A DNA stretch of 64,000 nucleotides from Eledone cirrhosa (GCA_964016885.1 OZ024744.1:37076001-37140000); one strand, 5' to 3'. Shown: positions 21,651 through 63,006, counted from the stretch's first letter. The notes: generated by a model from the sequence alone, not told the origin. Numbers and translations are program-made.

Positions 21651-24600
21651 TCAGTCAAAGAAACGAGCTGCGGAAAGGCCCGTCTGACAAACGGGGACCA
21701 CACCTGTTCACCGTTTAGGCAGAATATCTGGAGATGCCGCAGCCCCAGCGCGTGCCTGCGCATCATTAGCCACGGCATGCCCAGCCTTCTACGTAGAGGG
21801 TGCTGGCAGCACATGGACCGCCTCACCAGCGGAACCTGACCCCTCCACAAGAATTTGAAGAGGAGCCGCTCCAAGATGGCGAGGCGCGAACGGGAGCAAG
21901 GGACGACGGTCAGACGGTAGTAGATGACGGACGCGATGTACGCATTCGCCACCTCTGCACGACCTTTCAGCGATAGCTTCATCCCAGCACATTTCTGGGT
22001 GAGACAGGCTAGCCTGCCCGTCACCTCATCCCAATTCTTATCCACCTGGAGGTCTGGCCCGAACCAAACCCCTAGCAACTTTACCGGTCCGTCCATCCAG
22101 CGCCTAACGACGCTGTTGGACGGCATGGACTTGCCTCTCACGGCGCCGAGTTGCAAGCCCACAGACTTTTCCGGGTTAATTTTGCTCCCGTCAACCTTTC
22201 ATATTCCTCCAATAAGTTGCCAACCACCTCGATTTCTAAGGTTTCCGGCACCATCATGGTGATGTCGTCCGCATAAGCCGACACAGCCATTCTACGTCCC
22301 CGTTCGAGCGGGATACCCTGAACAGCTCCAGCTTCCGCAGTAAAGTCGCGAGAGTCAATACGTACAGAAGGCAGGAGTGAGGGCACCCTTGACGGACCGA
22401 TCGGGAGACCTGAAACGGTTCCGAGAGGTGGCCATTGATTTTGAACATCGAGCAGGTACCGCTGTGTATTGCAGGGATCCAGCTTCTGAAGACAAGGCCG
22501 AAGCCAGCCGCCTTGAGGACAGCCTCCGGGTACCGGTGGTCGACCCTATCGAATGCTTTCGATTGATCTAAATTGATCAGAGCCCCACCGAAGCCAGGTT
22601 TACACCCTACCCTCTCTATGATATATCGCATTAGGTGGAGATTGTCGTGTATGGACCTGGTTGGGATTGCGCAAATTTGCGCCACCGCAACCAAATCCCC
22701 ACGAAATCGCCAACCTCTTCGCTAACACCCTGGCCAAAATCTTAAACTCTGTGTAGAACAAGGTTATGGGCCTGACATTGTCTAATGTGTCCCTCTTGTT
22801 CTCGTATTTCCTTATGAGCGTCACTACGCCCCGGCTCACAGAACTGGGAATACTCCCATTTTGCTGCCAGTTGCAGTAGAAGGCTTCGAGGAGATTGGAG
22901 AACAAGTCTGGCATATTTACGTAAAGCTCGTAGGGCAGACCATCCAAACCGGGTGACTTGCGCCTCATGCAGTCGACAAGGGCATCCTGAATCTCGGCTG
23001 AAGTAATTGGGTTTCGCAGCGCCCAGCGTCAGCCGTCAGGAGTTGCGGCAAGCCATCGAGGTAGGGACTGAAGTCCGGCCAACATCTCTGACCCGCCACC
23101 TCCCCCGAACAACCGAGCAAAATGTTGGCGAAAGGCCTCACACATCCGCTTGGAATCGCTCAGCTCTTGTCCGTCTCGGTCCATCAAAGACCGAATCGTG
23201 GTTTTATTACCACGCTGCGCCTCTGCCACGCGGGCCCATCGAACACCTTTGGTTCCCTCGTTTCTCAGAGCACGCGCCTTAGCTCTGACAATGCAACCTT
23301 CGTGTTTTGCATTGAAGAAATGGTCTAATGCCATTCTCGCCGTTAGCACGTCAGTTGCAATGCCACTACCAATAGCCTCATCTAACTTATCTACCAAATC
23401 CCCCGCCTTTCTATTTTTCTCTAACGCTACTACTTTGCTAAACTCTATCGACATTACTCTAATCTCTCTTTTGAGATCCTCCTACCATCTATTGTTGACG
23501 ACTCCTCCTGTTAACTTTTTCTTAACAAAATTGTTGACCTGGTCCCTGTAAGCCTCACGTGCCGGAAATGACATGTTTAGCTTCCAGTAACCAGGTCCTA
23601 ACCTACGCGTCTTATCTAGGTCGACCATACATATCACAAACTTGTGATCTGAATAGGCGACCGTTTCAAAACGTGGGCAGCTTACACTATTTCTGTCTAT
23701 TTTCCTAATGAATATCCTGTCTATATACGATTTAGATGACCCTATGCGTTTAGCCCAGGTTCACACTGGCGCATTAGGGAAATCTAGTCGGTACCTGTCA
23801 GACAGTTGGAACTGGCTGATCAGATTCTTGAGGCTTTTGTACACCCCGCTCCTATCGGATACTCCCACACAGTCCCAGCGTGCGTCTAAGATTCCGTTCC
23901 AGTCTCCCGCTAACAGTAAAGGGCGAGACGTACCCAGAAAGTATTCTAAGCGTCTAAAGAAGTCCAGCCGTCCTGCCCCAGTAGGAGCATAGACGGCCAC
24001 CAGTCTAAAGACACCACCTTCGTTATTGTTCACGTCCAGGACCACCAACTTCCCGTCCGGGTCCCAGAAGATCGATCTTTCCTCGAGATCCAGGCCTTTC
24101 CTAAACAGCACTGCTACCCCGCCTCCCATTCCCGATCGGCTAACAGATGCAAAGATCTGATAGTCGTCGAAAATGGGGGCTAGTGCGCGCGTGTCGGAAA
24201 TCCTGGTCTCGCTGTCTGCAATTACATCCATTTCTATAGACCTGAGGTCGTTGAGCAGGTGACCCTGCTTCCAGGACGATCCCAGGCCTCGAACATTTAA
24301 CACATCCTACTCTTAATACGGCCATGTTGGCAGGTTCAACAGAGAGAGAGGAAGGTTTACTTACCTTCCGGGCTCTTGTGAAGGTCGAGTTGTTCGACCT
24401 CCATGGTTGGTGGGGTTTCTTTAAACGTCTTTAAAGTCGGTTTAACGTTCGGGGTTCCCACGTCCCGAGGAAAGCTGTCTCGGATTTTTTTTGAATATCC
24501 TGAGCGACATTCGCACCAGAACCAAATCTTCCGGCACGCGAAATTTGCTCGATTTAAAAATTTCCCCCACTTTTTTTATATTTTCAATTCGTGGTACGAG

Positions 24601-26523
24601 GGCCATCAGTTCCTTGTTGGCCCTCCTGACGAGCACAAAGTTTTGTATGTATTGTTGGTGTGATTTTATTTGTTTGCGTGGCTGTGGTAGTGATGGTTTT
24701 GGTTGTGTTGTTTCGGTTGTGTCTGTGTTTGTTGTGAGTGCTGTGTCTGTGGTTTCAGATGTTTGTGTGTATATTTGTTCTTGCGTCTGTTTGGGTTGTT
24801 TGCGTTTTGGGGATTATGGTGATGGTGATGGTGGTGTTGATGTTGGTGTTGTTGGAGAGATGTTTGCGTGGGTAGTGTCTGCGTTTTTTATTGTGGGTGA
24901 TTTTGGGCTTTGTTAATTTTTTTTTTTTCTTTTTGTGTTTCCTTTTTTGTATTTTGGGGGATTTTGGTTTTCCCTCACCTTCACTACTGGTAGATGAGGG
25001 GTCTGTGTCTGTAAGTGTGTCTGTATGTACGTTTATGGTTTTATTGGTGTGTGAATTTTGGGAGGGAGGGGGAATTTGACAGCTTTCCTCATTTCCCCCC
25101 TGGGTGGTCAATGTTGGTGGTGGTCTTTCTATTGGTGTTGTTGTTGGTAGTTTTGCCGGTGCTGGTATTGGCTGTGGTCCTCTCTCCGGCGTCGGCAGCA
25201 GTGGAGCCTTTCGACCCCTTGGCTCTTTCAGCAGTTGAGGGCAGAAGGCTCGCAAATGGGTTTATTCCCCACAAACAAAACACTGCGGCCTTTTGCCTTC
25301 GGTCATAATGTGAATGACCGTCCCATTCTGAAGGCGGATGTGGTCCGGGATTGTCTTCACATTCTCGGACCTGATCTGGAGAAGGATCTCCAGGTCAACC
25401 CCGGACCAGTCCTCTATGACCGTTCTGCTCACTTCTATAGGGACTGTATCCGTCCCCTCCACAATCACACATCGCAGAAGCCACCACATGTCAAGTCCTG
25501 GTGGGATTCTGGGAATGCGGAGACGGGCCGTTCTTTTTCCCATGTGGGATGGGTACATTATGACCTTGCTGGTTTTGCAAGGAGTCATAGCGTGTTTCAT
25601 AGCGAGGGCTTCTGACTTGAACAACACCGAAATGGTGCCGTACTGTCTGCCCCTCTCTATGTATTCGGTGTCTTCTCTGATGCACCTCAGTGCGACTTCG
25701 ACATCTTCTTGTGGGATTAAAGCTGCCCTTTTGGGTTGTGCTGAGATGCATCTATAATGTACCGTTCTGCCCTCCACTGCCTCAATAGCTTCTACCGGGA
25801 CAGTTAAGTTGGCCCAGGTTTGCTCTTGCTTGATGAGCTTCCATGCCTGGGCCAACTTTTCATCTTTGTTTGAGAGGTCCATGTTGAAGCATGGCCTCCT
25901 CTTTACTGCTACCGCAGCGAAAGTTTTCTTGTTTTCGTTGGGGCTGTTGTCGTTGTTCCTGTTGGTGCTGTTGTTAGCACTGTCGCTGTTATCATTGTTG
26001 TCTTTGTTGCCACCGTTGTTCTCGGTGCAGTTGGTATTGTTGCTGTTGGTGTTGCCGCTATTTGTTTTCATGTTAGTGGTGTTGATATTGTTGTTGTATT
26101 TGTTTGTTTTATTTGTTATCTGTATTCTCGTTGTCGCTGTTACTGTCATTTATTTCAAAATGAGAGTTCTCATTGGTATCATTCGTGTCTTTCTTTACCT
26201 TGTTTGTGGTGGTGTTTGTGTTATCAATTTGTGTTAATTTCGCTGTAGCGCTCCTCTCAACGTCCACGTCGTTGTCGCAAGACAGCCGACATATCGCTGG
26301 GGGCGTGGCTCAGCCATGTTTTTTTTTTCTTCGTAAATTTTTTAATATGTAAAAAAGTTCAAATATTTTGAAACAAAAGGCCCAAATATTATACTCTCCC
26401 CTTCACGGGGCAAAGTCTAAGGGCTTATATCCATTATACAACAAGAAATATTCAACAACAAATAATTTTAACAGGCAAATAAAGCGACTTACTGTGATCG
26501 AGCAAAATACGTCCGCTTAGACC
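21651..26523 (-). mobile_element. Tx1 copy T3 (family B): 5' UTR, ORF1 (~26317-24357), ORF2 (24325 onward), 3' end missing
   Basis: ORF1 has the CCHC knuckle KRPQCFVCGE..HLRAFC. ORF2 has APE motifs LNVRGL, SETR, VYAP, GDWN, SDHK, YWKLN and RT motifs KAFDRVDH, RQGCP, AYADD. Frameshifted. Confidence 0.92.
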
Positions 26524-26548
26524 AATAATAATAATAATAATAATAATA

Positions 26549-26613
<65 letters not shown>
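26524..26613 (+). repeat. (AAT)n spacer 2
   Basis: Direct. Confidence 0.95.
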
Positions 26614-26614
<1 letters not shown>

Positions 26615-29600
26615 CTTTCTTTATTAACCACAAGGGTTTACACAAAGTAGACATTAAGGTCAGTACAGGACAATACTGGACGGTACAAAAGAGCATTTCT
26701 GCGTGTGAAAAAAACCAAAAACAGAGGATGTAATAATAGAACAATGAAAAAATTCCCCAATGGGGGGAGACTTTCGAGGGACATTCGTAGAGAAAGCCTA
26801 TTAATAAGCCACAGTGACCCTGACCACCAGGGCAAGTGCCCCCTCGCAGTTTTCCACCTTTAATTTACAGACAGATACTCAGCAATTTAACCGGTGCGTT
26901 CGTCCAGCGCCCGACGACGCTGTTGGATGGCATGGACTTGCCACTCCAGGCGCCGAGCTGCAAGCCCACTGACTTTTTCTGGTTGATCATTGCTCCTGTC
27001 ACCGCTTCGTATTCTCTTAGTGTAGTGCCGATCGCCTCGATGTGTTTGGCGTTCGACACCACTACGGTGACATCGTCCGCATATGCTGACACGGATCTTC
27101 CGCATCCTAGTTCACGTGGGACCCCCTCAACGTCTCCAGTTTGTGCACTAATGGCTCGAGAGTCAATACGTACAAGAGGGACGAGAGGGGACATCCTTGG
27201 CGGACAGAGCGCATGATGTTGAACGGTTCCGAAAGGTGACCGTTCACTCTCACCACAGAGCAGATGTCGCCTCGTCTAATTTTCTAATTAGTTCTCCCTC
27301 TGCTCTATTTTTCTCTATTGCTAAAGACTTACTGAACCTAATGGACTCTATTCTAATCGCTCTTTTCAGAGCAAACCACCACTTGTTGTTGACGATGGCC
27401 CCCGTCAACGCCCGCTTAACTAGTTCGCTAATCCAGTCTCGTCTAATTTTCTAATTAGTTCTCCCTCTGCTCTATTTTTCTCTATTGCTAAAGACTTACT
27501 GAACCTAATGGATTCTATTCTAATCGCTCTTTTCAGAGCAAACCACCACTTGTTGTTGACGATGGCCCCCGTCAACGCCCGCTTAACTAGTTCGCTAATC
27601 CAGTCTCTGTAGGCCTTGCGCGCTGGTAAGGACGCGTTTAGCTTCCAGTAACTGGGTCATCGACTATGAAGCCTATCTAAGTCAAGCACACAGATCACGA
27701 ATTTGTGGTCCGTGTAGCTGTCCAGGAAGATGGCCCGTATGGCGAGATCCAAACCTCTCCGAAAAAGCACAGCAACTCTTCCCCCGATCCAGGACGGCTG
27801 GGAGATGCGTACACATCGTAGCCGCCGAAGATCGGTGCGAAAGCCCGTGCTTCGGAGATTCTGGTCTCGCTGATGGCCACTACATCTATGTTTAGTGAAC
27901 TGAGGTCGTTGAGCAGGTGGCCCTGAATCCATGACCACCCCAAGCCACGCGCATTTATGCTGCCTATTCTGAATGAGGTCATGTTGAAATGGATTGGAAA
28001 AGATGGGAAGACCACTTACCTTACTTCTCGTAGAGGAAGGATGGTTTCGCCATCCTTTTCACTGCTTGTGGCCTCCTCCGGAAGGATGTCCTTATAAATC
28101 CTCCTGGAGAGTGCTTGTCGGAAGTCTCCGATGTGCTTGAGGAATTTTTGTTTTAGTGTCGTGTACGTTTTCTGCGTGATGTTAGTGATTTGTATGTGTG
28201 GAGGTGGTGTGAACTTTTGGGTTGTTGTGTAGTTTTTTTCTGTGATGTTGGTGTTGTGTTGGATGTAGTGTAATAATTGCTTGTTGTTCAAATTTAATGC
28301 TGTGTAGTGTGTATCGTTTTGGTTGTTTTGTTTTGTTTGCGTTTGTTGTGGGTTTGTTTCTGTTTCGCGCTTTGATGACTTTTGTGGTGTTGGTGATGGT
28401 GGTGTTGGGGTTAATGATGGTGATGGTGTTGGTGTTTGTGGTGATGGGGTTGGTGATGCTGGTGTGGATGGTGGCATAGCTGTCCTAACTTTTTTGTCTG
28501 TTAATTTATTTGTTTCCCTCTGTATTTTGTTTTTTGGAGGGGAAGGAAGGGGATTTTTTCTTTTTTGGTTTCTTTTTCTTTTTTTCTTTTTTTCCGATAC
28601 CGTTTACCACTCGTCGTCACAATCTGTCTCCAGTTGATGTAGGTCGGGGAGTGGAAAATCCTCCACAGGCGTTGGTTTTGGTGGTTGTGGGGTGGTGGAC
28701 GGTGTAGGCGCTGGTGCAATTTCTGGCGCGTTGGGTGATGGTGGTGTTGGTTTTGCTACTGTTGCTGGGGTTGTTGCTGTTACAGTTGCTTCTGTTGTTG
28801 CTGCTACAGTTGTTGCTGCCATTTCTGCTGCTGGTGGTATTGATGGTTGAGTCACTGGGGTGGGTAAGAGAGGAGGCCTCAACCTTTTAGCCTGAGGGCA
28901 GAAAGCCCTTAGGTGGGCTACTTCACCACAAACGACACACCTAGGCCGTCTGCCCTCGACGATTACGGTGAGGTTGCAGCCGTCAGTGAGGTCTATTACC
29001 TCTGGGATCTCCTCAATGCTTTTTTGGTCCGCTTGGATCAGGAGCTCCTTCCCAGATCCGGACCAGTTCTCCTGCTTTTCTTTCGCTATTTCGATCATCT
29101 TGATGTTGGCTTCGATGCCGGCGAGGACGGCAGCCATTAGCAAGGGAATTTCGATGGCCGGTGGAACGTGGGTCACTCTGATCTTCACGAGTCTCTGGCC
29201 ACAATAGTTTGGGACGAGTGTGAAGTCGTCACTTTTTAATGGGGCCATGGAGTGTTCTCTGGCTTCCTTTGGTGTTTCAAAGAACACGTCCACGGTTCCA
29301 TATTTCTGCCCACGTCTGGTGTGGGTTTCTTTTACCCACACATGTCCCAAAGCTTTTTGGATTTGGGACTCGGATGCCCATTCCACTCGGCGCGATTTTA
29401 GGTTAATCGTCCGATAAGACACGGTGCATAGGCACCCATGCTCCATTTTATTAGGTGTGTGGGGGGGAGGCTGACCCTGTACCCATCTTTCTTTACCATT
29501 TTTTTGGCTTCTTGTAATTCCTCCTGAGTTACCTGGAATGCTTCGCTTTTTTTGCTACTCTGACAAAAGACAGGATTTTCTTATTCTCATTGTTGCTGTT

Positions 29601-30154
29601 GTTGTTATCGTTATTTTTGTTATTGTTAATTTTATTTTCAGTTGTGGTGGTGGCGTCAGTGGTGTTCGGTGTGGAACAGTTCATTTTGGCTGAATTCGTT
29701 TCGATATCACGAGATAATTTATTTTTTTCTTTTGTTTCTGTTGTCGCTGTGGTGGTTGTGGGCGTGGCGGCTTCAACACCTGCAGTCATTGGTAATGGCG
29801 GGAAATGAACGTCTGCCTGAGACAAATTTAAAATATTGCTACTGCTTATATTTTTAGTGTTGTCAAACGTAGTAATATTTGCAATGGTCGTGTCGGTGTG
29901 AGGTGTTAGTTTGTGAGGAAGGCTCTCAGCTACTGGGTTCAGCTGTGAGTCGGCCATGATTTTTCAAAGAAAATTATAAAAGTTTAAATTTTGGGCTCAA
30001 GGCCCCAATCTTTTTGAGTGGCCTTATCAGAAAACAATGTATGTGCACTTATATACAGTTAACAATAAACATTTCCCATAAATATCAATTTTAAACAACT
30101 GAAAATAACAAACCTGCGGAGCTCACGATTATACGATTTACTACGTAGATCGCC
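26614..30154 (-). mobile_element. Tx1 copy T4 (family A): both ends present, ORF1 (29957-28016) largely complete, ORF2 (27982-26865) with three large internal deletions
   Basis: ORF1 RRPRCVVCGEVAHLRAFC. ORF2 jumps IFLD->SYTDHK, KLDE->[10 protein letters not shown] and PVKLL->SICL* relative to the sister copies. Confidence 0.9.
27271..27607. repeat. 167-bp tandem duplication inside T4
   Basis: ctcgtctaattttc... begins at 27271 and again at 27438, with CTC shared at the junction. Confidence 0.9.
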
Positions 30155-30163
30155 AATAATAAT

Positions 30164-30224: not shown

Positions 30225-30226
<2 letters not shown>

Positions 30227-33200
30227 GATTTCATTTATTAGCCACAAGGGCTGACATGTAGGGGACAATACAAAGACAGGGACAGTGGGGGTTTACAATA
30301 AGGTCGAGTAAAAGTGCACAATGGCAAGACTAATTTAACAATGAAAATATAAAAATATAAAATAAACTATGCATAAATATTACAAAATAAATTCCCCGAT
30401 AGGGGGTGGACAACCCTGGGGTGATTCGGGTACCCCACCAATCCTGAACCACCCTGCGCTTCTAGGGCACCCAGGGAGAGCACTCTTCTCCTCAAGTTAG
30501 CTAGCCTATAGGCGCATGGTCAGAGTAGGCCCATTCACACGAGCCATTCTCGCCACATTCACCCACCTTTTAGCAAATGTACTGGGGGGGCAGCACTTCT
30601 CTCTCCACTCTCACCCTCCTTTCCAGGTGAAACTTGAAGAAGTTGATGAGGGATTGGCCGAAAAGAAAAGTGTCTGTCTTTAGTCCTTTCAACCTGGTCC
30701 ACCTTATAATCTCTTTCGCAACTGCCACCAAACAGAGGAAAATGTCCTGTTCTTCCTGACATAAGGAAAGTGGCGGCTCGATCTTCACTATGGACTCGGC
30801 CGATAGCCGGATTCGTTCCACACGCGACAGTAGCTGTTCGACATAACTCCACAAGTCAGTAATGCACGGACATTGGACAAGTGCGTGCAGAACGGTTTCG
30901 TCGTTCTGTGCGCATCTTGGGCAGGTCCGTCTGACAGCACTTCCGTGCCTGTAGAGTTTATCCCGAACCGGCAGTGCCCCCCGGTAGCACTGCCAAGCGA
31001 GGGATTTCTGGAAATTGTCCATCGTCCCCGGCTCAAAAGTCCTCCGGTACAGACTGGTCAGTTCGACTTCGTCGAGGCCCAAAGCTTCTCCGAGTGCGTC
31101 ATCGCACTTGCCCACCACTAATCCTCTATAAAACTCGAGAGTGGAAGTTCCACTGATCGCATTGCCCGCTTGGTAGAGGGCAGTGAGTGCCTGGCAACAT
31201 TCCAGGTGCCAGTCACCCAGTCTCGGTCTCTTCTTGACCCAGGACTGCAGCTCAGTCAAAGAAATGAGCTGCGGAAAGGCCCGTCTGATAAACGGCGACC
31301 ACACCTGTTCACCATTGAGGCAGAATATCTGGAGATGTCGCAGCCTCGACGCATGTCTGCGCATCATTAGCCACGGCATGCCCAGCCCTCCGTGTTGAGG
31401 GTGCTGGCAGCAGATGGACCGCCTCACCAACGGAACTTGTCCCCTCCACAAGAATTTGAAGAGGAGCCGTTCCAACATGACGAGGCGCGGACGGGGGCAA
31501 GGCACGACGGTTAGGCGGTAGTAGATGACGGACGCGATGTACGCATTCGCCACCTCCGCGCGACCTTTCAGTGATAGCTTCCTCCCAGCCCATTTTTGGG
31601 TGAGACTGGCTACTCTGCTCGTTACCTCGTCCCAATTCTTTTCCACCTGGAGGTCTGGTCCGAACCAAACCCCGAGCAACTTTACTGATCCGTCCGTCCA
31701 GCGCCCCACGACGCTGTTGGACGGCATGGGCTTTCTTCTCCAGGTTCCGAGCTGCAAGCCCACCGAATTTTCCGGGTTAAGTTTCGCTCCTGTCAACCTT
31801 TCATATTCCTTCAATAAGGTGCCGATCACCTCGATTTCTGAGGTGTTCGACACCATTACGGTGATGTCGTCCGCATAACCCGACACCGCCTTTCCACGTC
31901 CCGTTCGAGCGGGATGCCCTGCAACAGCTCCAGCTTCCGCAGTAAAGGCTCGAGAGTCAATACAGAAGGGAAGAGAGAGGGCACCCTTTACGAACCGATC
32001 GGGAGAGCCGAAATGGTTCCGAGAGGTGGCCATTAACCTTGACCACTGAGTGTGTGCCGCTGTTCATTGCAGCGATCCAGCTTCTAAATACAGGGCCGAA
32101 GCCAGCTGCTTTGAGGACAAACTCCAGATACCGATGGTCGACATTATCGAATGCTTTCGATTGATCTAAATTGATCAGTGCCCCACCGAAGCCAGGTTTA
32201 CACCCTACCCTCTCTATGATGTATCGCATGAGATTGTCGTGTATCGACCTGGCTGGGATTGCGCAAGTCTGCGCCTCCCCAACCAAATCCTCGACGACAA
32301 GCGCCAATCTCTTTGCTAACACCTTGGTCAACATCTTAAACTCTGTGTTGAGCAGAGTTATGGGCCTGAAGTTGTCTAATGTATCCCTCTCGTTCTCGTC
32401 TTTCCTTATCAGCGTCACCACTCCCCTGCTCACAGAACTGGGAATACTCCGATTCTGCTGCCAGTTACCGTAGAGTGCTTCGAGGAGTTCGGAGAACAAG
32501 TCTGGCATATTTACGTAAAGCTCGTAGGGCAGGCCATCCAAACCGGGTAACTTGCGCCTCATGCAGCCGACAAGGGCGTCATGAATTTCGGCTGAAGTAA
32601 TCGGCCTTTCGCAGCGCTCAGCGTCGACCGTTGAGATGCGCGGCAAGCCGTCAAGGTAGGGACTGAAATCCGCTACTCTTTCTGACTCTCCACTCTCCGC
32701 TAACAACCGAGCAAAGTGCTGGCAAAAGGCCTCACACGTCTACTTGGAATCGCTTATCTCGTGTCCGTCTCGGTCCGCCAAAGACCGAATTGTGGTTTTA
32801 TTACCACGCTGCGCCTCCGCCACGCGGGCCCATCGCACAGCTTTAGTTCCCTCGTTTTTCAGCGCACGCGCCTTAGCTCTGACAATGCAACCTTCGTGTT
32901 TGGCATTGAAGAAATGGTCTAATGCCATTCTCGCCGCTAGCATGTCAGTTGCGATGCCACTACAAATAGCCACGTCTAACTTATCTTCCAGCTCCCCCTC
33001 CTTTCTATTTTTCTCTAACGCTAGTTCTTTGCTGAACTCTATCGAAGTTACTCTAATCTCTCTTTTGAGAGCCCCCCACCATCTGTTGTTGATGATCTCG
33101 CCTGTCAACTTTTTCTTAACTAAATTGTTGACTCGGTCCCTGTAAGCCTTACGTGCCGGAAATGACATGTTCAGCTTCCAGTAACCAGGTCCTAACCTAT

Positions 33201-36112
33201 GCGTTTTATTTAGGTCGACCGTACAGATCACAAATTTGTGATCTGAATAGGCGACCGTTTTAAAAAGTGGACAGCCGACACTATTTCTATCTATTTTCTA
33301 ATGAAGATTCTGTCTATATACGATCTAGATGACCCCATTCGGTTGGTCCATGTCCATACTGGCACATTGGGGAAATCTAGTCGATACCTGTCAGACAGTT
33401 GGAACTGGCTGAGTAGGTGCTTGAGGCTTTTGTACCCCCCGCTCCTATCGGCTACTCCCACACAATCCCAGCGTGCGTCTAAGATGCCATTCCAGTCTCC
33501 CGCTAACAGTAAAGGGCAAGACGTACCCAGAAAGGTCTCCAGGCGCCTAAATAAGTCAGGTCGTCCGGCCCCTGTAGAGGCGTAGACGCCAGCAGTCTAA
33601 AGGCACCACCTTCGCTACTGCTCACATCCAAGACCACCAACTTACCGTCCGCGTCCCGGAAGATCGACCTTACCTCGAGATCCAGTCCTTTCCTAAACAG
33701 CACTGCCACCCCACCCCCCATTCCCGGACTGCTAACAGATGCGAAGATCTGATAGTCATCGGAAATGGGGGCTAGTGTGCGCGTGTCGGAAATTCTGGTC
33801 TCGCTGACGGCAATCACATCCATTTCAAGCGACCTGAGGTCGTTGAGCAGGCGACCCTGCTTCCAGGGTGACCCCAGGCCGCGAACATTTAAACTTCCTA
33901 CTCTTAATATGGCCATATTGGTAAGCTAAGAGATAGAGGGGGAAGGTTTACTTACCTCCCGGGTCTTGTGAAGGTCGGGTGGTTCGACCTCCATGGTTGG
34001 TGGGGTTTCTTTTGGGTACCCCTTTAAAAGTCTTGATGTGGGTTTCACATTCGGGTTTCCCACGTCTTGAGGAAAGCTCTCTCGAATTTCTTTGAAGGAA
34101 TTGAGTGACATTCGGACCAGAAGCAAATCTTCTGGCACGCAAAATGTGCTCATTTCAAAAATCTCCCCATCTGTTTGAATGTCCTCGTTTGCGCTAAGAG
34201 GGCCATCAGTTTATCGTTGGCCCTTCTGACAAGCACGAAGATTTTAACATTTTGTTGGTGTGGTTTTATTTGTTTTCGTTTTGGTGAATGTGGTGGCGAT
34301 GGTTTTGGTGGTGTTGTTTCGGGTATGTCTATGTGTGTTGTAGGTGTGGTGTCTGCAATTTCAGGTATTTGTGTGCTTATTTGTACTTGTGTTTGTTTAG
34401 GTTGTTTGCGTTTCGGGGATTGTGGAGGTGGTGTCGATGTTGCTGATGGTGCTGATGTTATTGGGGAAGTGTCTGTGTTAGTGGTGTCTGTATTTTTTGT
34501 TGTGTGTGTTTTTGTGTTTTGTTGGGGCTTTTTTTGTGAGTTTTCTCTGTTTTTTTGCACTTTGGGGTTTTCCTTCATCTTCGCTGCTGGAAGACAAATG
34601 GTCTGTGTCTGTGAGTGTCTCCGGGTCTGTGTGTGCGTTTATTTTTTCTTTGTCTATGTGTATAGTTGGGGGGTAGGGGGAGTGGGAGAGCTTTCCTCGT
34701 TTTCTCCTTGGATTGGTTTTGGTGCTGGTGGTGATCCGGCTGCTTTTGATGTTGGTGTCCGTGTTTTTGTTGATGTTGTTTTTGGTAGTGGTGGTGGTGC
34801 AGCTTTCCGTGCTGACACTGGCGTTGGAAACAAAGGAGGTCTGCGACCCCCTGCATTTTTGCGCTGAGTGCAGAAGGCTTGAACATGTGTGGCTTCCCCG
34901 CAAACGAAGCAGCGTGGCCTTCTTCCGTTAATCATTAGTTGGATTGTTGTCCCGTCCTGCAGGCGGGAAAAATCTGGGATGTTATTCATATCCTCCGGTT
35001 TCATTTGGAGAAGAATCTCCAAATCCATTCCGGACTAGTCCTCTCTCTCTGTCCTTTTGATGTCCAGGAGGGTGGTGTCTGTCCCCTCCTCGATTACGCA
35101 TCCCAGCAGCCACCATATGTTCATTCCTGGTGGGATGCTGGGAATGCGTACCTTCACTGTCCTTTTACCCATATAGGACGGATGCATGATAATGCGTTCC
35201 GTTCTGCAGGGGGTCACCGAGTGCTTAATAGCGAGGGCCTCGGTTTTGAACAGTACCGAGAAGGTACCGAACTGTTTGCCTCTTGCTTTGTACTCTATGT
35301 TACTTCCGATGTACTCCAAAGCAGCCTCTACCTCTACTTGGCTCGCAAGTTCCACTTTTCGTGTCTGCACCGAAATACATCGAAAGAGCACCGTCCTCCT
35401 TTGCATAGCCGCTATTGCCTCGTCCGGGTTGGTCAGGTTTGCCCAGGACTTCTCCCGTTTAATTAGCCTCCACGCCTTGGCCAACTGTTCGTCTTTATCG
35501 CTAATATCAATATCGATATTCAATAAGCGCTTTGTTTTTGCTGCTGCTGCAGCAAATGTGGTGTTTCTGATGCTCTTATTGTTGTTGTTGTCATTCTTGC
35601 TGTTCCCACCACCATCCTTGTTTAGATTGAAGCTGTCGGTGTTTTTGTCGTTATTGCTCTGAGTTGTTGTTGTTGTGGTGGCGGTGGTGGTGGCGGTGGT
35701 GGTGATGTCGTTTTCAGATGATACTGCTGCTATGCCAGAAGGTTGTGATGGTAGCTTTTTAGTTTTGCCTTCACATTCAGTAGAGTGGATGACAGGCATG
35801 ACTGTAGCCGTCGTAGTCGTGGTGAAATCTGCAGTGGCTGCCTTTAAACTTTTGACCTGAACGTTGTTTACCGTTTCAAGGTCTAAAATTTCCATAATTT
35901 TCTTTTGGTGGGGAAGCGATTTTTTTCGAAGTTTTTAAAAAATAAATCTGAATATTCGGGCTTAGAGCCCGGATATTGAGAGGTATCCCTCTCTTTAAAT
36001 CAAGATGTTTATCTTAAGTTTCGTTAATGACAAGAAAATACAAAAAAAAAAACACTTTAAAACAGCTTAAAGCTACGAACCTTTTCCCCCGCAGACTTGT
36101 TTGTCTTCACAC
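30225..36112 (-). mobile_element. Tx1 copy T5 (family C), essentially full length: ORF1 35895-33926, ORF2 33916-30506, frameshifted
   Basis: ORF1 RRPRCFVCGEATHVQAFC. ORF2 has APE, RT (GYADD) and CPRC..ETVLHALVQC. AATAAA lies just before the tail. Confidence 0.93.

Positions 36113-36201
<89 letters not shown>
36113..36201 (+). repeat. (AAT)n spacer 4
   Basis: Direct; it produces the artefactual poly-Ile in ORF 36101. Confidence 0.95.
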
Positions 36202-36203
<2 letters not shown>

Positions 36204-37467: not shown

Positions 37468-37479
37468 AATAACAATAAC

Positions 37480-37549
<70 letters not shown>

Positions 37550-37555: not shown

Positions 37556-37721
37556 GGGAAGAAGACGCACGAGGTGACGGAGGTCATGAAATCGCTCCCG
37601 TAAGTTTTGAATTTTTAACATATTTAAATCATTTGTGAAATAACAACTCTTAGTACAAATGCTACGTAAAGCACCCGGCTTGAGCCCAAAAAAAATTCGG
37701 ACCCAAAATATATTGTTATAA

Positions 37722-38369: not shown

Positions 38370-38938
38370 TCGCATCACCGCCACCACTGCCTCGGTACCG
38401 ACATCACCACCACCACTGTCTCAGTATCGCCAACGCCGCCAGTCTCTGCTGGCTACCACTTCCACATTATAGAATTCCTACTACTAACAAAGAGGAAGGC
38501 ATCAAAATATATAGATAGACTCAAAAGAAAAAAGAAAAAACAAACAACAAAAGCAGCACAGCAACAACAGTAAAAAACGAGAAAAACAGAGAAAAACAAA
38601 AACAAAAAAAGAAACCCCAAAAACGTAAAGAAAATAAGAATGAAGAGAGAAGCAGGCGGACGGACAGAGAAGAGGGGGGAAAAAGTAAAACTTAAAAAAC
38701 AAAAACTAAGTCAGACATTCGAATACTACATTACAATGAAACTTATGCTTATTCATTTTTGGGGCCCTTTCTGCCCGTGTGTTTGTTTGTTTATGTGTGT
38801 CCGTATACAGCGTGGTGATAATGCCACACAAGGGCCAAGTGGGATGGCGGATCCACAGATGGCTATGTAAACATACATTCGCCAATCCTCGATAAGAGTG
38901 TTTAAATATCGAACATAAACAGTTCGAATAACGGTGAA

Positions 38939-42442: not shown

Positions 42443-42444
42443 TT

Positions 42445-46673: not shown

Positions 46674-46674
<1 letters not shown>
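42445..46674 (+). mobile_element. R4/Dong-clade copy D3, older sister of D2; ORF ~43214-46600 broken by frameshifts and stops
   Basis: ORF pieces 43255..44517, 44544..44768, 44811..45659, 45710..46189 and 46211..46600 are colinear with the D2 protein. Confidence 0.92.

Positions 46675-46710
<36 letters not shown>
46675..46710 (+). repeat. (AAT)n spacer 7 (tail-to-tail junction D3/T6)
   Basis: Direct. Confidence 0.95.
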
Positions 46711-46712
<2 letters not shown>

Positions 46713-49700: not shown

Positions 49701-52566
49701 ACCTACGCGTTTTATCTAGGTAGACCATACAGATCACAAATTTGTGATCTGAATAGGCGACCATTTTAAAAAGTGGACAGCCCACACTATTTCTATCTAT
49801 TTTCCTAATGAAGATCCTGTCTATATACGATCTAGATGACCCCATTCGGTTGGTCCATGTCCATACTGGCACATTGGGGAAATCTAGTCGATACCTGTCA
49901 GACAGTTGGAACTGGCTGAGTAGGTGCTTGAGGCTTTTGCATCCCCCGCTCTTATCGGCTACTTCCACACAATCCCAGCGTGCGTCTAAGATGCCATTCC
50001 AGTCTCCCGCTAACAGTAACGGGCGAGACGTACCCAGAAAGGTCTCCAGGCGCCTGAAGAAGCCGGTTGTCCGGACCATGAAGGGGCGTAGACGGCCAGT
50101 AGTCTAAAGGCACCACCTTCGCTACTGCTCACATCCAAGACCACCAACTTACCGTCCGGGTCCCGGAACATCGACCTTACCTCGAGATTCAGTCCTTTGC
50201 TAAACAGCACTGCCACCCCACCCCCCCATTCCCGGACTGCTAACAGATGCGAAGATCTGATAGTCGTCGAAAATGGGGGCTAGTGTGCGCGTGTCGGAAA
50301 TTCTGGTCTCGCTGACGGCAATCACATCCATTTCAAGCGACCTGAGGTCGTTGAGCAGGCGACCCTGCTTCCAGGGTGACCCCAGGCCGCGAACATTTAA
50401 ACTTCCTACTCTTAATATGGCCATATTGGTGAGCTAAGAGAGAGAGGGAAGGTTTACTTACCTCCCGGGGTCTTGTGAAGGTCGGGTGGTTCGACCTCCA
50501 TGGTTGGTGGGGTTTCATTTGGGAACCCCTTTAAAAGTCTTGATGTGGGTTTCACATTCGGGGTTCCCACGTCTTGAGGAAAGCTCTCTTGAATTTCTTT
50601 GAAGGAATTGAGTGACATTCGGACCAGAAGCAAATCTTCTGGCACGCAAAATGTGCTCAATTCAAAAATCTCCTCCTCTGTTTGAATGTCCTCGCTTCGT
50701 GCTAAGAGCGCCATCAGTTTATCGTTGGCCCTTCTGACAAGCACGAAGTTTTTAACATTTTGTTGGTGTGGTTTTATTTGTTTTCGTTTTGGTGACTGTG
50801 GTGGTGATGGTTTTGGTGGTGTTGTTTCGGGTATGTCTGTGTTTGTTGTAGGTGTGGTGTCTTCAATTTCAGGTATTTGTGTTTTTTTTTGTACTTGTGT
50901 TTGTTTAGGTTGTTTGCGTTTCGGGGATTGTGGAGGTGGTGTCGATGTTGCTGATGGTGCTGATGTTATTGGGGAAGTGTTTGCGTTAGTGGTGTCTGTA
51001 TTTCTTGTTGTGTATGTTTTTGTGTTTTGTTGGGGCTTTTTTTTTTTGTGAGTTTTCTCTGTTTTTTGCACTTTTGGGTTTTCCTTCATCTTCGCTGCTG
51101 GAAGACAAAGGGTCTGTGGCTGTGAGTGTCTCTGTGTCTGTGTGTGCGTTTATTGTTTTGTCTATGAGTATAATTGGGTGGGGGGCTGTTAGAGCTTTCC
51201 TCGTTTTCCCCTTGGATTGGTTTTGGTGTTGGTGGTGATCCGGCTGTTTTTGATGTTGGTGTCCGTGTTTTTGTTGGTGTTGATTTTGGTGGTGGTGGTG
51301 GTGGTGCAGCTTTCCGAGCTGACACTGGCGTTGGCAACAAAGGAGGTTTGCGACGCCCTGCAGTTTTGCGCTGAGGCCAGAAGGCTTGCAGATGCCTTGC
51401 TTCCCCGCAGACGAAGCAGCGTGGCCTTCTTCCGTCAATGATTAGTTGGATTGTTGTCCCGTCCTGCAGGCGGGAAAAATCCGGGATGTTGTTCAGGTCC
51501 TCCGGTTTCATTTGCAGAAGAATCTCCAAATCCATTCCGGACCAGTCCTCTCTCTCTGTCCTTTTGATATCCTGGAGGGTAGTGTCTGTCCCCTCCTCGA
51601 TTACGCATCCCAGCAGCCACCATATGTTCATTCCTGGTGGGATGCTGGGAATGCGTACTTTACTGTCCTTTTACCCATGTAGGACAGATGCATGATAATG
51701 CGTTCTGTTCTGCAGGGCGTCACCGAGTGCTTAATAGCGAGGGCCTCGCTTTTGAACAGTACCGAGATGGTACCGAACTGTTTGGCTCTTGCTTTATACT
51801 CTATGTCACTTCCGATGCACTCCAAAGCAGCCTCGACCTCTGCTTGGCTGGCAAGTTCCACTTTTCGTGTCTGCACCGAAATGCATCGAAAGAACACCGT
51901 CCTCCTTTGCATGGCCGCTATTGCCTCGTCCGGGATGGTCAGGTTTGCCCAGGACTTCTCCCGTTTAATTAGCCTCCACGCTTGTGCCAACTGTTCGTCT
52001 TTATCGCTAATATCAATATCAATATTCAATAAGCGCTTTGTTTTTGCTGCTGCTGCAGCAAATGTGGTGTTTCTGATGCTATTATTGTTGGTGTTGTCAT
52101 TCTTGCTGTTGTTATTGGTGTTGTTGTTGTTGTTGTGGTGGTGGTGGTGGTGATGTCGTTTTCAGATGATACTGCTGCTATCACAGAAGGTTGTGATGGT
52201 AGCTTTTTAGTTTTGCTTTCACATTCAGTAGAGTGGATGACAGGCATGACTGTAGCCGTCGTAGTCGTGGTGAAATCTGCAGTGGCTGCCTTTAAACTTT
52301 TGACCTGAACGTTGTTTACCGTTTCAAGGTCGAACATTTCCATAATTTTTTTGGTGGGGAAGCGATTTTTTTCGAAGTTTTTAAAAATAAATCTGAATAT
52401 TCGGGCTTAAAGCCCGGATATTGAGAGGTATCACTCTCTTTAAATCAAGATGTGTACCTTAAGTTTCGTTAACGACAAGAAAATACAAAAAATGACACTT
52501 TAAAACAGCTTAAAGTTACGAACCTTTTCCACCGCAGATTTGTACTGTCTTCACACATGTGCGGTC
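46711..52566 (-). mobile_element. Tx1 copy T6 (family C), full length: ORF1 52343-50454, ORF2 50424-46993, frameshifted
   Basis: Colinear with and closely similar to T5 over its whole length, including both UTRs. Confidence 0.93.
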
Positions 52567-52630
<64 letters not shown>

Positions 52631-57523: not shown

Positions 57524-57546
57524 ATAATAATAAAAATAATAATAAT
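57524..57546 (+). repeat. (AAT)n spacer 9 (tail-to-tail junction D4/T7)
   Basis: Direct; short and imperfect. Confidence 0.85.
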
Positions 57547-60500
57547 GATTTAATTTATTGGCCACAAGGGCCGACATATAGGGGACAATACAAAAGACTG
57601 GGACATTGGGGTTTTACAAAAAAATCGAGTAAACAATATGAATCACAATAACAAAGTAACAAGAAAATTACAAGAAAAAATTCCCCAATATGGGGGGGGA
57701 TGACCACCCAGGGTTCGCTCAAGTACCCCACCAATCCTGAACGACCTGACGCTTCGAGAGCAACCCCTCTCCTCCTCAAATTTACCTACCTACAGCCGCA
57801 TGACCAGAGTAGGCCCACTCACACGGGCCATTCTCGCCACATTCACCCACCTTTCAGTAAATGTACTGGGGGGCAGCACTTCTCTCTCTACCCTCACCTT
57901 CCTTTCCAAGTGAAACTTGAAAAAGTTGATGAGGGATTGGCCGAAGAGAAAAGTGTCTGTCTTCAGTCCTTTCAACCTGGTCCACCATACAACCTCTTTC
58001 GCTACTGCCACCAGACAGAGAAAAATTGTCTACCCTTCCTGACCAAAAGAAGGCGGCGGGTCGACCTTCTCTATGGACTCGGCCGATAGCTGGATCCGTT
58101 CTACACGCGACAACAGCTGTTCAACATAACTCCACAAGTCAGTAATGCACGGACACTGGACGTGTGCGTGCAGAACGGTTTCGTCGCTCTGCGCGCATCT
58201 CGGGCAGGTCCGTCTGACAGCAATTCCGTGCCTGTAGAGTTTATCTCGAACCGGCAGTGCGCCCTGGTAACACTGCCAAGCGAGGGATTTTGGGAAATGA
58301 TTCATCGTCCCCGCCTCGAAAGACTTCCGGTACAGTCTGGTTAGTTCGACTTCATTGACTCCCAGAGCCTCTCCGAGTGCGTCGTCGCACTTGCCCACCA
58401 ATAATCCTCTATAGAACTCGAGAGTGGAAGTTCCATTGACCGCATTGCCCGCCTGGTAGAGGGCAGTTAGGGCCTGGCAACATTCCAGATGCCAGTCACT
58501 CAGTCTCGGTCTCTTCTTGACCCAGGACTGCAGCTGAGTCAAAGAAACGAGCTGCGGAAATGTCAGTCTGACAAACGGCGACCACCGTTCACCGTTTAGG
58601 CAGAATATCTGGAGATGCCGCAGCCTCAGCGCGTGCCTGCGCATTAGTAGCCACGGCATGCCCAGCCCTCCACGTAGAGGGTGCTGGCAGTAGATGGACC
58701 GCCTCCCTAGCGGAACCTGACCCCTCCACAAGAATTTGAAGAGGAGCCGCTCCAAGATAGCGAGGCGCGAACGGGGGCAAGGGACGACGGTCAGACGGTA
58801 ATAGATGACGAACACGATGTACGCGTTCGCCACTTCCGCTTGACCTTTCAGTGATAGCTTCATCTCAGCCCATTTCTGGGTGAGACTGGCTACCCTGCCC
58901 GTCACATCGTCCCAATTCTTATCCACCTAGAGGTCTGGCCCGAACCAAATCCCTAGCAACTTTACCGGTCCGTCCGTCCAGTGCCTAACGACGCTGTTGG
59001 ACGGCATGGACTTGCCTCTCCAGGTGCCGAGTTGCAAGCCCACCGACTTTTCCGGGTTAAGTTTTGCTCCCGTCAACCTTTCATATTCCTCCAATAAGTT
59101 GCCGACCACCTCGGTTTCTGAGGTTTCCGACACCATCACGGTGATGTCGTCCGCATAAGCCGACACAGCCTTTCCGCGTCCCGGTTCGAGCGGGATGCCC
59201 TGCAACAGCTCCAACTTCCGTAGTAAGTGCTCGAGAGTCAATACGTACAGAAGGGAGGCATGAGGGCACCCTTGACGGACCGATCGGGAGACCTGAAACG
59301 GTTCCGAGAGGTGGCCATTAATTTTGACCATCGAGCAGGTGCCGCTGTGCATTGCAGCGATCCAGCTTCTGAAGACAGGGGCGAAGCCAGCCGTCTTGAG
59401 GACAGTCTCCAGGTACCGATGGTCGAACCTATCGAATGCTTTCGATTGATTTAAATTGATCAGAGCCCCACCGATGCCAGGTTTACACCCTACCCTCTCT
59501 ATGATGCATCGCATTAGGTGGAGGTTGTCGTGTATGGACCTGGTTCGGATTGCGCAAGTTTGCGCCTCCCCAACCAAATCCCCGACGACACGCCAACCTC
59601 TTCTCTAACACCCTCGCCAAAATCTTAAACTCTGTTTTGAGCAGAGTTATGGGCCTGAAATTGTCTAATGTGTCCCTCTTGTTCTCGTCTTATCAACGTC
59701 TCTATGCCCCGGCTCACGGAACTGGGAATACTCCCGTTTTGCTGCCGGTTGCAGTAGAGGGCTTCGAGGAGATTGGAGAACAAGTCTGGCATATTTACGT
59801 AAAGCTCGTAGGGCAGACCATCCAAACCGGGTGACTTGCGCCTCATGCAGCCGACAAGGGCATCCTGAATCTCGGCTGAAGTAATTGGCCTTTCGCAGCG
59901 CCCAGCGTCAGCCGTCGAGAGTTGCGGCAAGCCATCGAGGTAGGGACTGAAATCCTCCACCATCTCTGACCCGCCACTTCCCCCGATAAACCGAGCAAAA
60001 TGTTGGCGAAAGGCATCACACATCCTCTTGGAATCGCTGAGCTCGTGTCCGTCGCGGTCCGTCATAGACCGAATCGTGGTTTTATTACCACGTTGCGCCT
60101 CTGCCACGAACAGCTTTGGTTTCCTCGTTTCTCAGAGCACGTGCCTTAGCTCTGACTAATAGATTACCCACGCGCCTTAGCTCTGACATAGATTACCCTA
60201 TGCGGGTAGCCCAGGTCCACACTGGCGCATTAGGGAAATCTAATCGGTACCTGTCAGACAGTTGGAACTGGCTCATCAGGTTCATCAGGTTCTTGAGGCT
60301 TTTGCACCCTCCTATCGGATGCTCCCACACAGTCCCAGCGTGCGTCTAAAATGCCGTTCCAGTCCCCTGCTAACAGTAAAGAGCGAGACGTGCCCAGAAA
60401 GTCTTCCAGGCGTCTAAAGAAGTCCGGCCGTCCTTCCCCAGTAGGAGCATAGACGGCCACCAGTCTAAAGGCACCACCTTCGTTATTGTTCACGTCCAGG

Positions 60501-63006
60501 ACCACCAACTTCCCGTCCGGGTCCCGGAAGATCGACCTTTCCTCGAGATCCAGGCCTTTCCTAAACAGCACTGCCACCCCGTCTCCCATTCCCGGTCGGC
60601 TAACAGATGCAAAGATCTGATAGTCGTCGAAAATGGGGGCTAGTGCGCGCGTGTCGGAAATCCTGATCTCGCTGACGGCAATTACATGCATTTCTAGAGA
60701 CCTGTGGTCATTAAGCAGTTGACCCTGCTTCCAGGACGATCCCAGGCCTCGAACATTTAAACATCCTATTCTTAATACGGCCATGTTGGCAGGTTAAAAA
60801 GAGAAAGAGGAAAGATTTACTTACCTTCCGGGCGCTTGTGAAGGTCGAGTTGTTCGACCTCCATAGTTGGTGGGGTTTCTTTTGGGAACCCCTTTAAAAG
60901 TCTTAAAGTTGGTCTTACGTTCGGGGTTCCCACGACCGGATGAAAGCTGTCTCGTATTTCTTTGTATAATTCGATAGAACATTCGCACCAGAACCAAATC
61001 TTCCGGCACGCCAAATGTGCTCGATTTAAAAATGTCCCCCTCTTTTTCTATATGTTCACTTCGTGGTACGATGGCCATCAGTTCCTTGTTGGCCCTCCTG
61101 ACGAGCACAAAGTTTTGTATGTTTTGTTGGTGTGATTTTATTTGTTTGCGTGGCTGTGGTGGTGATGGTTTTGGTTGTGTTGTTTCGGTTGTGTCTGTGT
61201 TTGTTGTGAGTGTGGTGTCTGTGGTTTCAGATGTTTGTGTGTATATTTGTTCTTGCGTCTGTTTGGGTTGTTTGCGTTTTGAGGATTCTGGTGATGGTGA
61301 TGGTGGTGTTGATGTTGGTGTTATTGGAGAGATGTTTGCGTGGGTGGTGTCTGCGCTTTTTATTGTGGGTGATTTTGTGCTTTGTTGATTTTTTTTTTCT
61401 TTTTGTGTTTCCTTTTTTGTATTTTGGGGGATTTGGGTTTTCCCTCACCTTCACTACTGGTAGATGAGGGGTCTGTGTCTGTAAGTGTGTCTGTATGTAT
61501 GTTTATGGTTTTATTGGTGTGTGTATTTTGGGAGGGAGGGGGAATTTGACAGCTTTCCTCATTTCCCCCCTGGGTGGTCAATGTTGGTGGTGGTCTTTCT
61601 ATTGGTGTTGTTGATGGTGGTTTTGCCCGTGCTGGTGTAGGTTGTGGTCCTCACCCCGGCGTCGGCAGGAGTGGAGCCTTTCGACCCCTTGGCTCTTTCA
61701 GCAGTTGAGGGCAGAAGGCTCGCAAATGGGTTTATTCCCCACAAACAAAACACTGCGGCCTTTTGCCTTCGGTCATAATGTGAATGACCGTCCCATTCTG
61801 AAGGCGGATGTGGTCCGGGATTGTCTTCACATTCTCGGACCTGATCTGGAGAAGGATCTCCAGGTCAACCCCGGACCAGTCCTCTCTGGCCATTCTGGTC
61901 ACTTCTATAGGGACTGTATCCGTTCCTTCCACAATCACACATCCCAGAAGCCACCACATGTCAAGTCCTGATAGGATTCTGGGAAAGCGGCGACGGGACG
62001 TTCTTTTTCCCGTGAGGGAGGGGTACAATATGACCTTGCTGGTTTTGCAAGGAGTCATATCGTGTTTCATAGCGAGGGATTCTGACTTGAACAACACCGA
62101 AATGGTGCCGTACTGTCTGCCCCTCTCTATGTATTCGGTGTCTTCTCCGAAGCACCTCAGCGCCACTTCGACATCTTCTTGTGGGATTAAAGCTGCCCTT
62201 TTGGTTTGTGCTGAGATGCATCTATAATGCACCGTTCTGCGCTCCACTGCCTCAATAGCTTCTACCGGGACAGTTAAGTTGGCCCTGGATTGCTTCTGCT
62301 TGATGAGCTTCCATGCCTGGGCCAACTTTTCATCTTTGTTTGAGAGGTCCATGTTGAAGCATGGCCACTTTTTTTATGCTGCTGCTGCGAAAGTTTTCTT
62401 CTTGTTTTCGTTGGGGGTGTTGTTGTCGTGGTCGTTGTTCTTGTTGGTGTTGTTGTTAGCACTGTCGCTGTTATCATTGTTGACTTTGTTGACACCGTTG
62501 TTCTCGGTGCAGTTGGTATTGTTGCTGTTGGTGTTGTCGCCATTTTTTTCATGTTAGTAGTGTTGATATTGCTGTTGCATTTGTTATTTTTTTTTTATAT
62601 CTGTATTTTCGTTGTCGCTGTTACTGTCATTTTTTTAAAAATGAGAGTTCTCATTGGTATCATTGGTGTCTTTGTTTACATTGTTTATGGTGGTGTTTGT
62701 GTTATCAATTTGTGTTAATTTCGCTGTAGCGCTTCTATCAAATTCTACCTCGTTGTCGCACGACAGCCGACATATCGTTGGGGGGCGTGGCTCAGCCATG
62801 TTTTTTTTTCTCCGTATATTTTTTAACATGTAAAAAAAAAAGTTCAAATATTTTGGCCAAAAGGCCCAAATATTATACTTTCCCCTTCACAGGGCAAAGT
62901 CTAAGGGTTTATATCCCTTACACAACAATAAATATTTAACAACAAATAATTTTAACAGGCAAATAAACGACTTATTGGGAGCGAGCAAAATACGTCGGAT
63001 TAGACC
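57547..63006 (-). mobile_element. Tx1 copy T7 (family B): both ends present, ORF1 62799-60817, ORF2 60784-57790 with a ~440-bp deletion
   Basis: Colinear with T3 in the 5' UTR, ORF1 and ORF2; AYADD; 3' motif CCCTTGTGGCCAATAAA. Confidence 0.92.

Follow-up and report, generated by a model that had tools for sequence, protein, structure and literature searches.

Long interspersed nuclear elements (LINEs) of the Tx1/L1 group, such as Kibi and Koshi (PMC4494074) and L1-Tx1 of Octopus vulgaris (PMC13282606), contain two open reading frames (ORFs). ORF1 has a CCHC knuckle and ORF2 encodes an apurinic/apyrimidinic (APE) endonuclease, a reverse transcriptase (RT) and a zf-RVT domain. Members of the group including Kibi and Koshi insert into microsatellites and leave 5'-truncated copies (PMC4494074), and recently active L1-Tx1 and Dong-R4 families are described for O. 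vulgaris (PMC13282606). Here, we describe elements with the same features in a window of Eledone cirrhosa DNA (the whole 64-kb stretch OZ024744.1:37076001-37140000, with positions counted from its first base). Their target is (AAT)n, whereas that of Kibi and Koshi is of the (TC)n or (TTC)n type (PMC4494074). Furthermore, a candidate splice donor, AG/GTAAGT (the slash marks the exon-intron boundary), is found at the ORF1 stop. The accessible text on Kibi, Koshi and O. vulgaris L1-Tx1 does not mention such a donor (PMC4494074, PMC13282606).

In Arabidopsis Evade (shGAG) and Drosophila copia the structural gene also ends in a U1-type donor, upstream of the enzyme gene (PMC5580714). The conserved U1 donor of Arabidopsis Ty1/copia elements produces a gag-only RNA and prevents premature termination, and an intron of ~3 kb in Drosophila copia is cited by the same source (PMC5580714). 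Those are single-ORF long terminal repeat (LTR) elements for which splicing and the acceptor have been demonstrated. Conversely, the elements described here are non-LTR, have two ORFs and an APE endonuclease, and are not members of Ty1/copia; their donor is known from sequence. Human L1 is also a LINE with functional-looking splice sites and mostly unspliced RNA (PMC5860796). However, the human L1 donor lies in the 5' untranslated region (UTR), is inefficient and overlaps a RUNX3 site, whereas the donor described here has the full consensus and is located at the ORF1 stop. Spliced retrocopies (SpIREs) are known for human L1 (PMC5860796), and none was seen here within the window. Termination-reinitiation in L1 and SART1 involves the same short inter-ORF spacer and conserved ORF2 ATG, and is likely the route to ORF2 here too (PMC5972666). 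The accessible description of those junctions includes no splice donor, whereas one is present here. The literature searched, which lacked most subscription papers and Repbase, described neither a donor at the ORF1 stop nor a spliced ORF1-ORF2 fusion for L1/Tx1 elements.

The window consists of animal DNA rich in AT microsatellites, and from ~19 kb onward it contains LINEs nested in (AAT)n tracts. Five minus-strand copies, T3 to T7, include ORF1 (Table 1). They represent three families: A (T4, together with the 5'-truncated T2), B (T5 and T6) and C (T3 and T7). Identity in the RT region is 91-94% inside families, 86-87% between B and C and ~74% between A and B/C. All five copies have decayed by stops and frameshifts. 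The original prediction placed a perfect donor at the ORF1 end of every Tx1 copy. All of the motifs are present on the minus strand, with the GT positions and contexts that it gave, and the statement stands for every copy that has an ORF1 (5/5); it does not reach T1, T2, T3a and T8, the 5' parts of which are not in the window. In T3-T7 the motif overlaps the ORF1 stop. It equals the animal 5' splice-site consensus agGTaagt (PMC13644364) and matches at 8/9 donor positions, a score that no other site on the sense strand of any of the five elements exceeds. There are 5 occurrences in 25,660 sense-strand bases, against 0.45 expected. Because the copies are related, these represent about three lineages and not five events. 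One further AGGTAAGT occurs in the window, on the plus strand at 20544.

The sequences around the motif differ greatly between families. For A compared with B/C, identity is 0.47-0.53 at ORF2 third positions, 0.42-0.54 in the spacer (shuffle baseline 0.47 +/- 0.06) and 0.48-0.52 in the last 150 nucleotides (nt) of ORF1 (baseline 0.46 +/- 0.02). The motif itself is identical at 8/8 positions in T4 and families B/C. By our own arithmetic, neutral retention of the motif between A and B/C has a probability of ~0.004, or ~0.03 with the TAA discounted. For more distant relatives, a donor-blind pattern scan of metagenome sequence yielded at least 120 loci; 17 without an endonuclease match were dropped and 103, mostly 22-35% identical to the query proteins, were kept. 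Upstream sequence of 100, 200 and 280 nt was available for 98, 97 and 89 loci, respectively. AGGTAAGT was present within 100 nt upstream at 0/98 distant L1/Tx1 loci (0.29 expected) and within 280 nt at 1/89 (0.52 expected). Conservation of the donor applies to the three families of the window and does not extend to the distant loci. The motif is real and, since it is kept between families with near-random flanks and 0/98 distant loci have it, it is lineage-restricted and likely selected.

Two distant loci have related sequences, both within chance expectation. Upstream of its endonuclease match, locus L056 has AG/CTAAGT, a pyrimidine spacer and CAACATG with similar spacing. Locus L076 has AGA/GTAAGT 71 nt before the catalytic Asn codon. 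No close relative with DNA context was found in the metagenome, viral or genome contigs searched. The 43 viral matches to a pattern combining donor and endonuclease were dropped as chance, with tblastn hits for 0/43.

We counted the ORF1 reading phase at the donor from the conserved FVLVRR block. T3, T5 and T7 arrive in phase 2, as does T4, and only T6 arrives in phase 1. The original prediction had T3, T6 and T7 in phase 1; the distance from FVLVRR agrees for T6 but gives phase 2 for T3 and T7. The phase-2 frame contains two stops in T3 and one in T6, and is open to AGG TAA in T7. T5 is in phase 2 only via two 1-nt gaps relative to T6. T3 and T7 each have one extra base compared with family B, ~105-120 nt upstream. 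Over the last 50 codons, substitutions at positions 1/2/3 of the phase-2 frame number 12/3/12 for T6 against T7 and 11/3/9 for T6 against T3. Phase 2 is favoured because substitutions spare the second codon position in that frame. Synonymous counts fail to separate the frames (5/19 versus 6/22). Synonymous changes as proof of a phase-1 frame were dropped, since the FVLVRR distances and the substitution positions speak otherwise. Thus, family A and probably family C end AGG TAA, and family B ends GGT AAG TAA in T6. Protein constraint is therefore less firmly excluded. The case for constraint on the motif at the nucleotide level holds up, but it is weaker than had been argued, since an Arg-stop AGG TAA in A and C would explain 6/8 bases.

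Among contigs from four sequencing runs of a single study, mapped on T5, a +1 at 33956/33960 accounts for ~6-25% of depth (X1-X3) and a +1 at 34190 for ~93% of depth (X1, X2). The last ~50 ORF1 codons are open in two frames in T5 (33955-34120, minus strand) and T7 (60824-60990, minus strand), with TAAGTAA stopping both, and the ORF1 tail seems to tolerate frame changes. At the ORF1 end of T4 (28019-28027, minus strand) there is a tandem GTAAG GTAAG, with a second, weaker candidate donor 5 nt upstream; the T4 stop and donor may derive from a 5-nt duplication.

We tentatively favour a reading in which the consensus donor is a U1-binding 5' splice site that works as in copia and Evade, keeping full-length RNA intact and also giving an ORF1-only mRNA, with ORF2 made from its own ATG. 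A U1 site and an ORF1-only mRNA had been named as alternatives in the original prediction; we rank them first, above a short-intron fusion. In the proposed scheme most transcripts would remain unspliced, and U1 on the donor would suppress cryptic polyadenylation in ORF2. Full-length bicistronic RNA would be made and copied, and termination-reinitiation would allow translation of ORF2 from its own ATG. Some of the RNA would be spliced to a distant acceptor, removing ORF2 to leave an ORF1-only mRNA and excess ORF1 protein. A predicted 7-bp hairpin over AG/GU, in T3, T5 and T6, could keep splicing inefficient. Here U1 binding, splicing and reinitiation are what we infer, and a candidate donor is what can be read from the DNA. 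The motif persists across differing ORF1 phases (2 in T4, T3 and T7; 1 in T6), which would be predicted for an RNA signal rather than for a frame-dependent fusion. AATAAA is found 1153-1156 nt downstream of the donor in T3, T5 and T6, with a matching site across the deletion in T7. Family A has a good-looking acceptor-like site 74 nt before its poly(A) signal, and other acceptor-like sites are located in ORF2.

Several observations weigh against this reading. Just three lineages are compared and the feature was chosen after the fact. The absence of the motif from the 98 distant loci means that it is not a general need of the group. If A and C share the Arg-stop, ~2-5 bases alone need a non-coding explanation. 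The downstream AATAAA sits in coding sequence and may be protein-driven, and 3 to 7 A(A/T)TAAA hexamers also precede the donor in each copy. For the hairpin, z-scores are unremarkable in 4/5 copies (-1.3 to +0.4), that of T3 being -3.75. Spliced retrocopies number 0/5 in the window. Finally, acceptors in the 3'UTR were rejected as evidence; they are non-homologous between families, and 619-1710 of 2000 shuffles reach the observed score (7 tails). If a selected U1 site is real, one LINE lineage would have arrived convergently at the way in which copia-type LTR elements process their RNA; convergence on a spliced fusion is less likely. To our knowledge, the mechanism behind a high ORF1:ORF2 ratio in bicistronic LINEs is known for few elements, and is translational in all of them. 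If there is neither a U1 site nor a fusion, the copies are ordinary ones of Tx1 type, decayed and nested in microsatellites.

The same bases could instead serve translation, a possibility that we regard as real but rather unlikely. The stop would then be part of a reinitiation element, made up of an Arg codon, TAA, the tandem TAA-G-TAA, a hairpin closed by the CUUCC spacer and the ATG, and the likeness to a donor would be incidental. With phase 2 as the ancestral state, AGG TAA would cover 6/8 bases. Two frames are closed by TAAGTAA in T3, T5, T6 and T7, the hairpin predicted for T3, T5 and T6 holds the stops in its loop, and CTTCC or CTTTCC follows the motif in 5/5 copies. Both SART1 and L1 use termination-reinitiation, SART1 with RNA structure (PMC5972666). 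However, a fixed AGG codon is unexpected when the ORF1 tails of A and B/C have near random identity. In T4 the second TAA is missing and the predicted fold is different, and the T7 hairpin is weak. A TAA stop with AGG before it and GT after it has a chance probability of ~0.001, so that a perfect donor would arise around TAA ~1 time in 1000. U1 is also expected to bind the motif whatever its origin.

The spacer and the start of ORF2 bear on a further explanation, which the original prediction had preferred. A 51-59-nt intron would sometimes be removed, fusing ORF1 to ORF2. For families A and C the acceptor would be the AG of the ORF2 Arg5 codon (CAG in T4, AAG in T3 and T7), rebuilding R-(I/V)-G seamlessly, and for family B it would be TAG. 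We consider this improbable. The positions had been given accurately: acceptors at 27969, 24307, 50406 and 60766, with lengths of 51, 58, 56 and 59 nt, are correct, and the donor is followed by a pyrimidine-rich spacer (79-86% pyrimidine over +9 to +36) and then the ORF2 ATG (+38 to +41). Splicing to TTCAG at 27969 in T4 is also in frame, with a phase-2 junction ...EVR-IGSIN. Conversely, the TAG sites at 24307 and 60766 are not in frame with ORF1 as sequenced. Because the phase is 2, the in-frame acceptor of T3 and T7 shifts from TAG to a weak AAG; the sequence, TTAAG at 24312 and 60771, is homologous to TTCAG of T4. In T4 and T7 this phase-2 AG can be read in frame, in T6 it cannot, and in T3 stops precede it. 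The phase-2 junction, ...APGR-IGCLN in T7, is tidier than the TAG junction. It keeps a hydrophobic residue four before the catalytic Asn, whereas the TAG junction puts Gly or Glu there. The residue at this position is I, L, V, F, M, A or T in 20/20 homologous N-termini, and its counterpart in the L1 endonuclease structure 1vyb is residue 10 by alignment.

Other details fit a short intron. The donor is immediately before a stop in both phases and, in T4, TTCAG is the first AG past the donor hexamer. Animal introns this small exist, with a usual lower limit of ~30 nt (PMC13644364); the accessible parts of the literature searched gave no figure for minimum intron size in cephalopods. In T5, T6 and T7 there are yUnAy branch-like motifs at +31 to +34. 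This branch consensus is common by chance. Furthermore, T3 has no such motif and that of T4 (+46) is 5 nt from the AG. ORF2 of T3-T7 starts with M-x-x-(L/F)-R-(I/V)-G, of which the R-(I/V)-G codons force an AG in phase 1 and in phase 2 in all five copies, with one in phase 0 also in T5 and T6. An in-frame acceptor is therefore uninformative. The pyrimidine tract adjoins the donor and not the acceptors: pyrimidine content upstream of the AGs is 41% for TAG sites, 53% for AAG sites and 65% for the T4 CAG, compared with the 79-86% that follows the donor. Such an intron would contain the ATG and first codons of ORF2, all of which 5/5 copies retain, and spacer length varies. In 4/5 copies this ATG shares its frame with the catalytic Asn, T3 having a later +1. 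Under L1-type cis preference (PMC5860796), a spliced fusion mRNA would be expected to be copied, yet the interval is kept in 5/5 copies of the window, and contigs X2 record 16 and X4 record 30 bridge the T5 interval intact. Among the 15 of 1754 joints and 12 of 81 gap rows listed for contigs on T5, none starts from the donor, is CT..AC-ended or spans 51-59 nt, an uninformative result as contigs drop rare variants. Taken together, the presence of AGs in both phases, the corrected phases of T3 and T7, the low pyrimidine content at TAG and the retained ORF2 ATG do not support a splice-controlled fusion. It is hard to credit from these sequences that a cephalopod LINE lineage makes an ORF1-endonuclease-RT fusion via a ~51-54-nt intron holding the ORF1 stop and the ORF2 ATG, with the donor hairpin setting the ratio. 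If true, this would be a splice-controlled counterpart of gag-pol frameshifting in a non-LTR element.

Family B has an additional, strong acceptor-like TAG (33926 and 50434, minus strand), with 94% pyrimidine upstream and 9 nt before the ORF2 ATG, that is not present in families A and C. In T5 it is 30 nt from the donor. Paired with a 5'UTR donor, it could yield an ORF2-only RNA.

Donor-like sequences also occur near element ends. GT motifs are found 33-47 nt from 5' ends, at 26492, 30113, 36080, 52523 and 62975 on the minus strand and at 37600 and 52694 on the plus strand. The motif is GTAAGT in T3, GTTTGT in T4, GTTCGT in T5 and T6, ATAAGT in T7 and CCC/GTAAGT in the two plus-strand units. 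Each sits at a switch from GC-richer to AT-rich sequence, and TCGCTCCC directly before it is common to T7 and the plus-strand units. These motifs may be U1 sites close to promoters, or a promoter element that the copies and units have in common. Their occurrence in both Tx1-type and unrelated plus-strand elements lends something to the least probable of our explanations for the motif at the ORF1 stop: inheritance by chance, or a DNA-level motif such as a protein-binding or internal-promoter element. With three lineages and a feature picked after the fact, descent has some appeal, and the human L1 5'UTR donor overlaps a RUNX3 site (PMC5860796). Conversely, the estimates for neutral retention between A and B/C (~0.004-0.03) are low, and there is no promoter evidence at the ORF1/ORF2 junction.

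Table 1. Coordinates of donors, spacers, elements and 3' features.
Feature	Position	Strand	Details
T3 donor AG/GTAAGT	24359..24366	minus	family C; GT 24364; stops TAA 24363-24361 and 24359-24357
T4 donor AG/GTAAGT	28014..28021	minus	family A; GT 28019; ORF1 stop TAA 28018-28016, phase 2
T5 donor AG/GTAAGT	33950..33957	minus	family B; GT 33955
T6 donor AG/GTAAGT	50456..50463	minus	family B; GT 50461; phase 1 open to GGT AAG TAA
T7 donor AG/GTAAGT	60819..60826	minus	family C; GT 60824; ORF1 C-terminal block open, phase 2, to AGG TAA
T3 spacer	24307..24358	minus	ORF2 ATG 24325; AGs ending 24312 (phase 2, AAG) and 24307 (phase 1, TAG)
T4 spacer	27964..28013	minus	ORF2 ATG 27982; AGs ending 27969 (phase 2, CAG) and 27964 (phase 1, TAG)
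T5 spacer	33898..33949	minus	ORF2 ATG 33916; TAG ending 33926; AGs ending 33903, 33901 and 33898
T6 spacer	50406..50455	minus	ORF2 ATG 50424; TAG ending 50434; AGs ending 50411, 50409 and 50406
T7 spacer	60766..60818	minus	ORF2 ATG 60784; AGs ending 60771 (phase 2, AAG) and 60766 (phase 1, TAG)
T3 element	21651..26524	minus	family C; ORF1 ATG 26317, CCHC knuckle 25282; 3' part missing
T4 element	26610..30155	minus	family A; ORF1 ATG 29957, knuckle 28939; three internal ORF2 deletions
T5 element	30225..36113	minus	family B, full-length; ORF1 ATG 35895, knuckle 34911
T6 element	46711..52567	minus	family B, full-length; ORF1 ATG 52343; 93% identity to T5
T7 element	57530..63007	minus	family C; ORF1 ATG 62799; 92% identity to T3; ~440-nt ORF2 deletion
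T4 3' end		minus	best acceptor-like 3'UTR site ends 26699; AATAAA 26625
C-run/G-run 3'UTR motif, examples	30406, 26767, 20289, 57698, 63203, 11859, 19079	minus	

In the minus-strand elements, ORF1 carries a CCHC knuckle, and ORF2 encodes the APE endonuclease, RT and zf-RVT domains. By this anatomy, read from their sequences, they belong to the L1/Tx1 group. The Tx1 label itself comes from the original prediction and fits the anatomy; the homologues found are unnamed or hypothetical, with no named Tx1 reference, and the sole named one is an Argonauta hians protein (59%), which, with the families active in O. vulgaris, points to a likely octopod host. The CCHC pattern is present in 5/5 ORF1s, one with C changed to W, and a Pfam search gave no RRM match in ORF1. 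A separate ORF1 with a CCHC knuckle corresponds to type I ORF1 (PMC5203782). In Pfam the endonuclease PF03372 was matched by T3, T5, T6 and T7 (above or equal to the cutoff), the RT PF00078 by T5, T6 and T7, and PF13966 by T2, T5, T6, T7 and T8. The ORF2 of T5 has endonuclease, RT and zf-RVT, interrupted by stops and frameshifts. The ORF2 N-terminus has a weak match (E 0.002) to L1 endonuclease structures. Rfam gave no match in the 64-kb window.

T4-T7 are bordered by (AAT)n tracts on both sides, and T3 on the 5' side; the ends of T1 and T3a are not in an (AAT)n tract. At ~21640 T3, with its 3' part missing, abuts the 5'-truncated family-A copy T2 via a short unrelated linker, and 19052-20094 is a separate copy, not the tail of T3. 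The donor is not involved in the deletion breakpoints of T4 and T7. All Tx1-type 3'UTRs have a C-run/G-run inverted motif, then a U-rich, AG-poor stretch; this arrangement is possibly the 3' recognition structure.

The same (AAT)n nest contains plus-strand single-ORF LINEs (36197-37500, 38572-42438, 42868-46707 and ~53700-57400). One has an unbroken 1141-codon frame (38906-42331, plus strand) that contains RT and, C-terminally, a CCHC plus PD..D-type motif, a combination that we take to be of R4/Dong type. Plus-strand segments 36197-37500 and 41135-42438 are 99.5% identical, which suggests recent activity or local duplication. At 37600-37653 and 52694-52747 (plus strand), GTAAGT ... CTTAG spans ~54 nt and includes TTAAC, an arrangement that resembles a tiny intron in the 5'UTR. 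Its splicing, if it occurs, would show that introns of this size work in the host.

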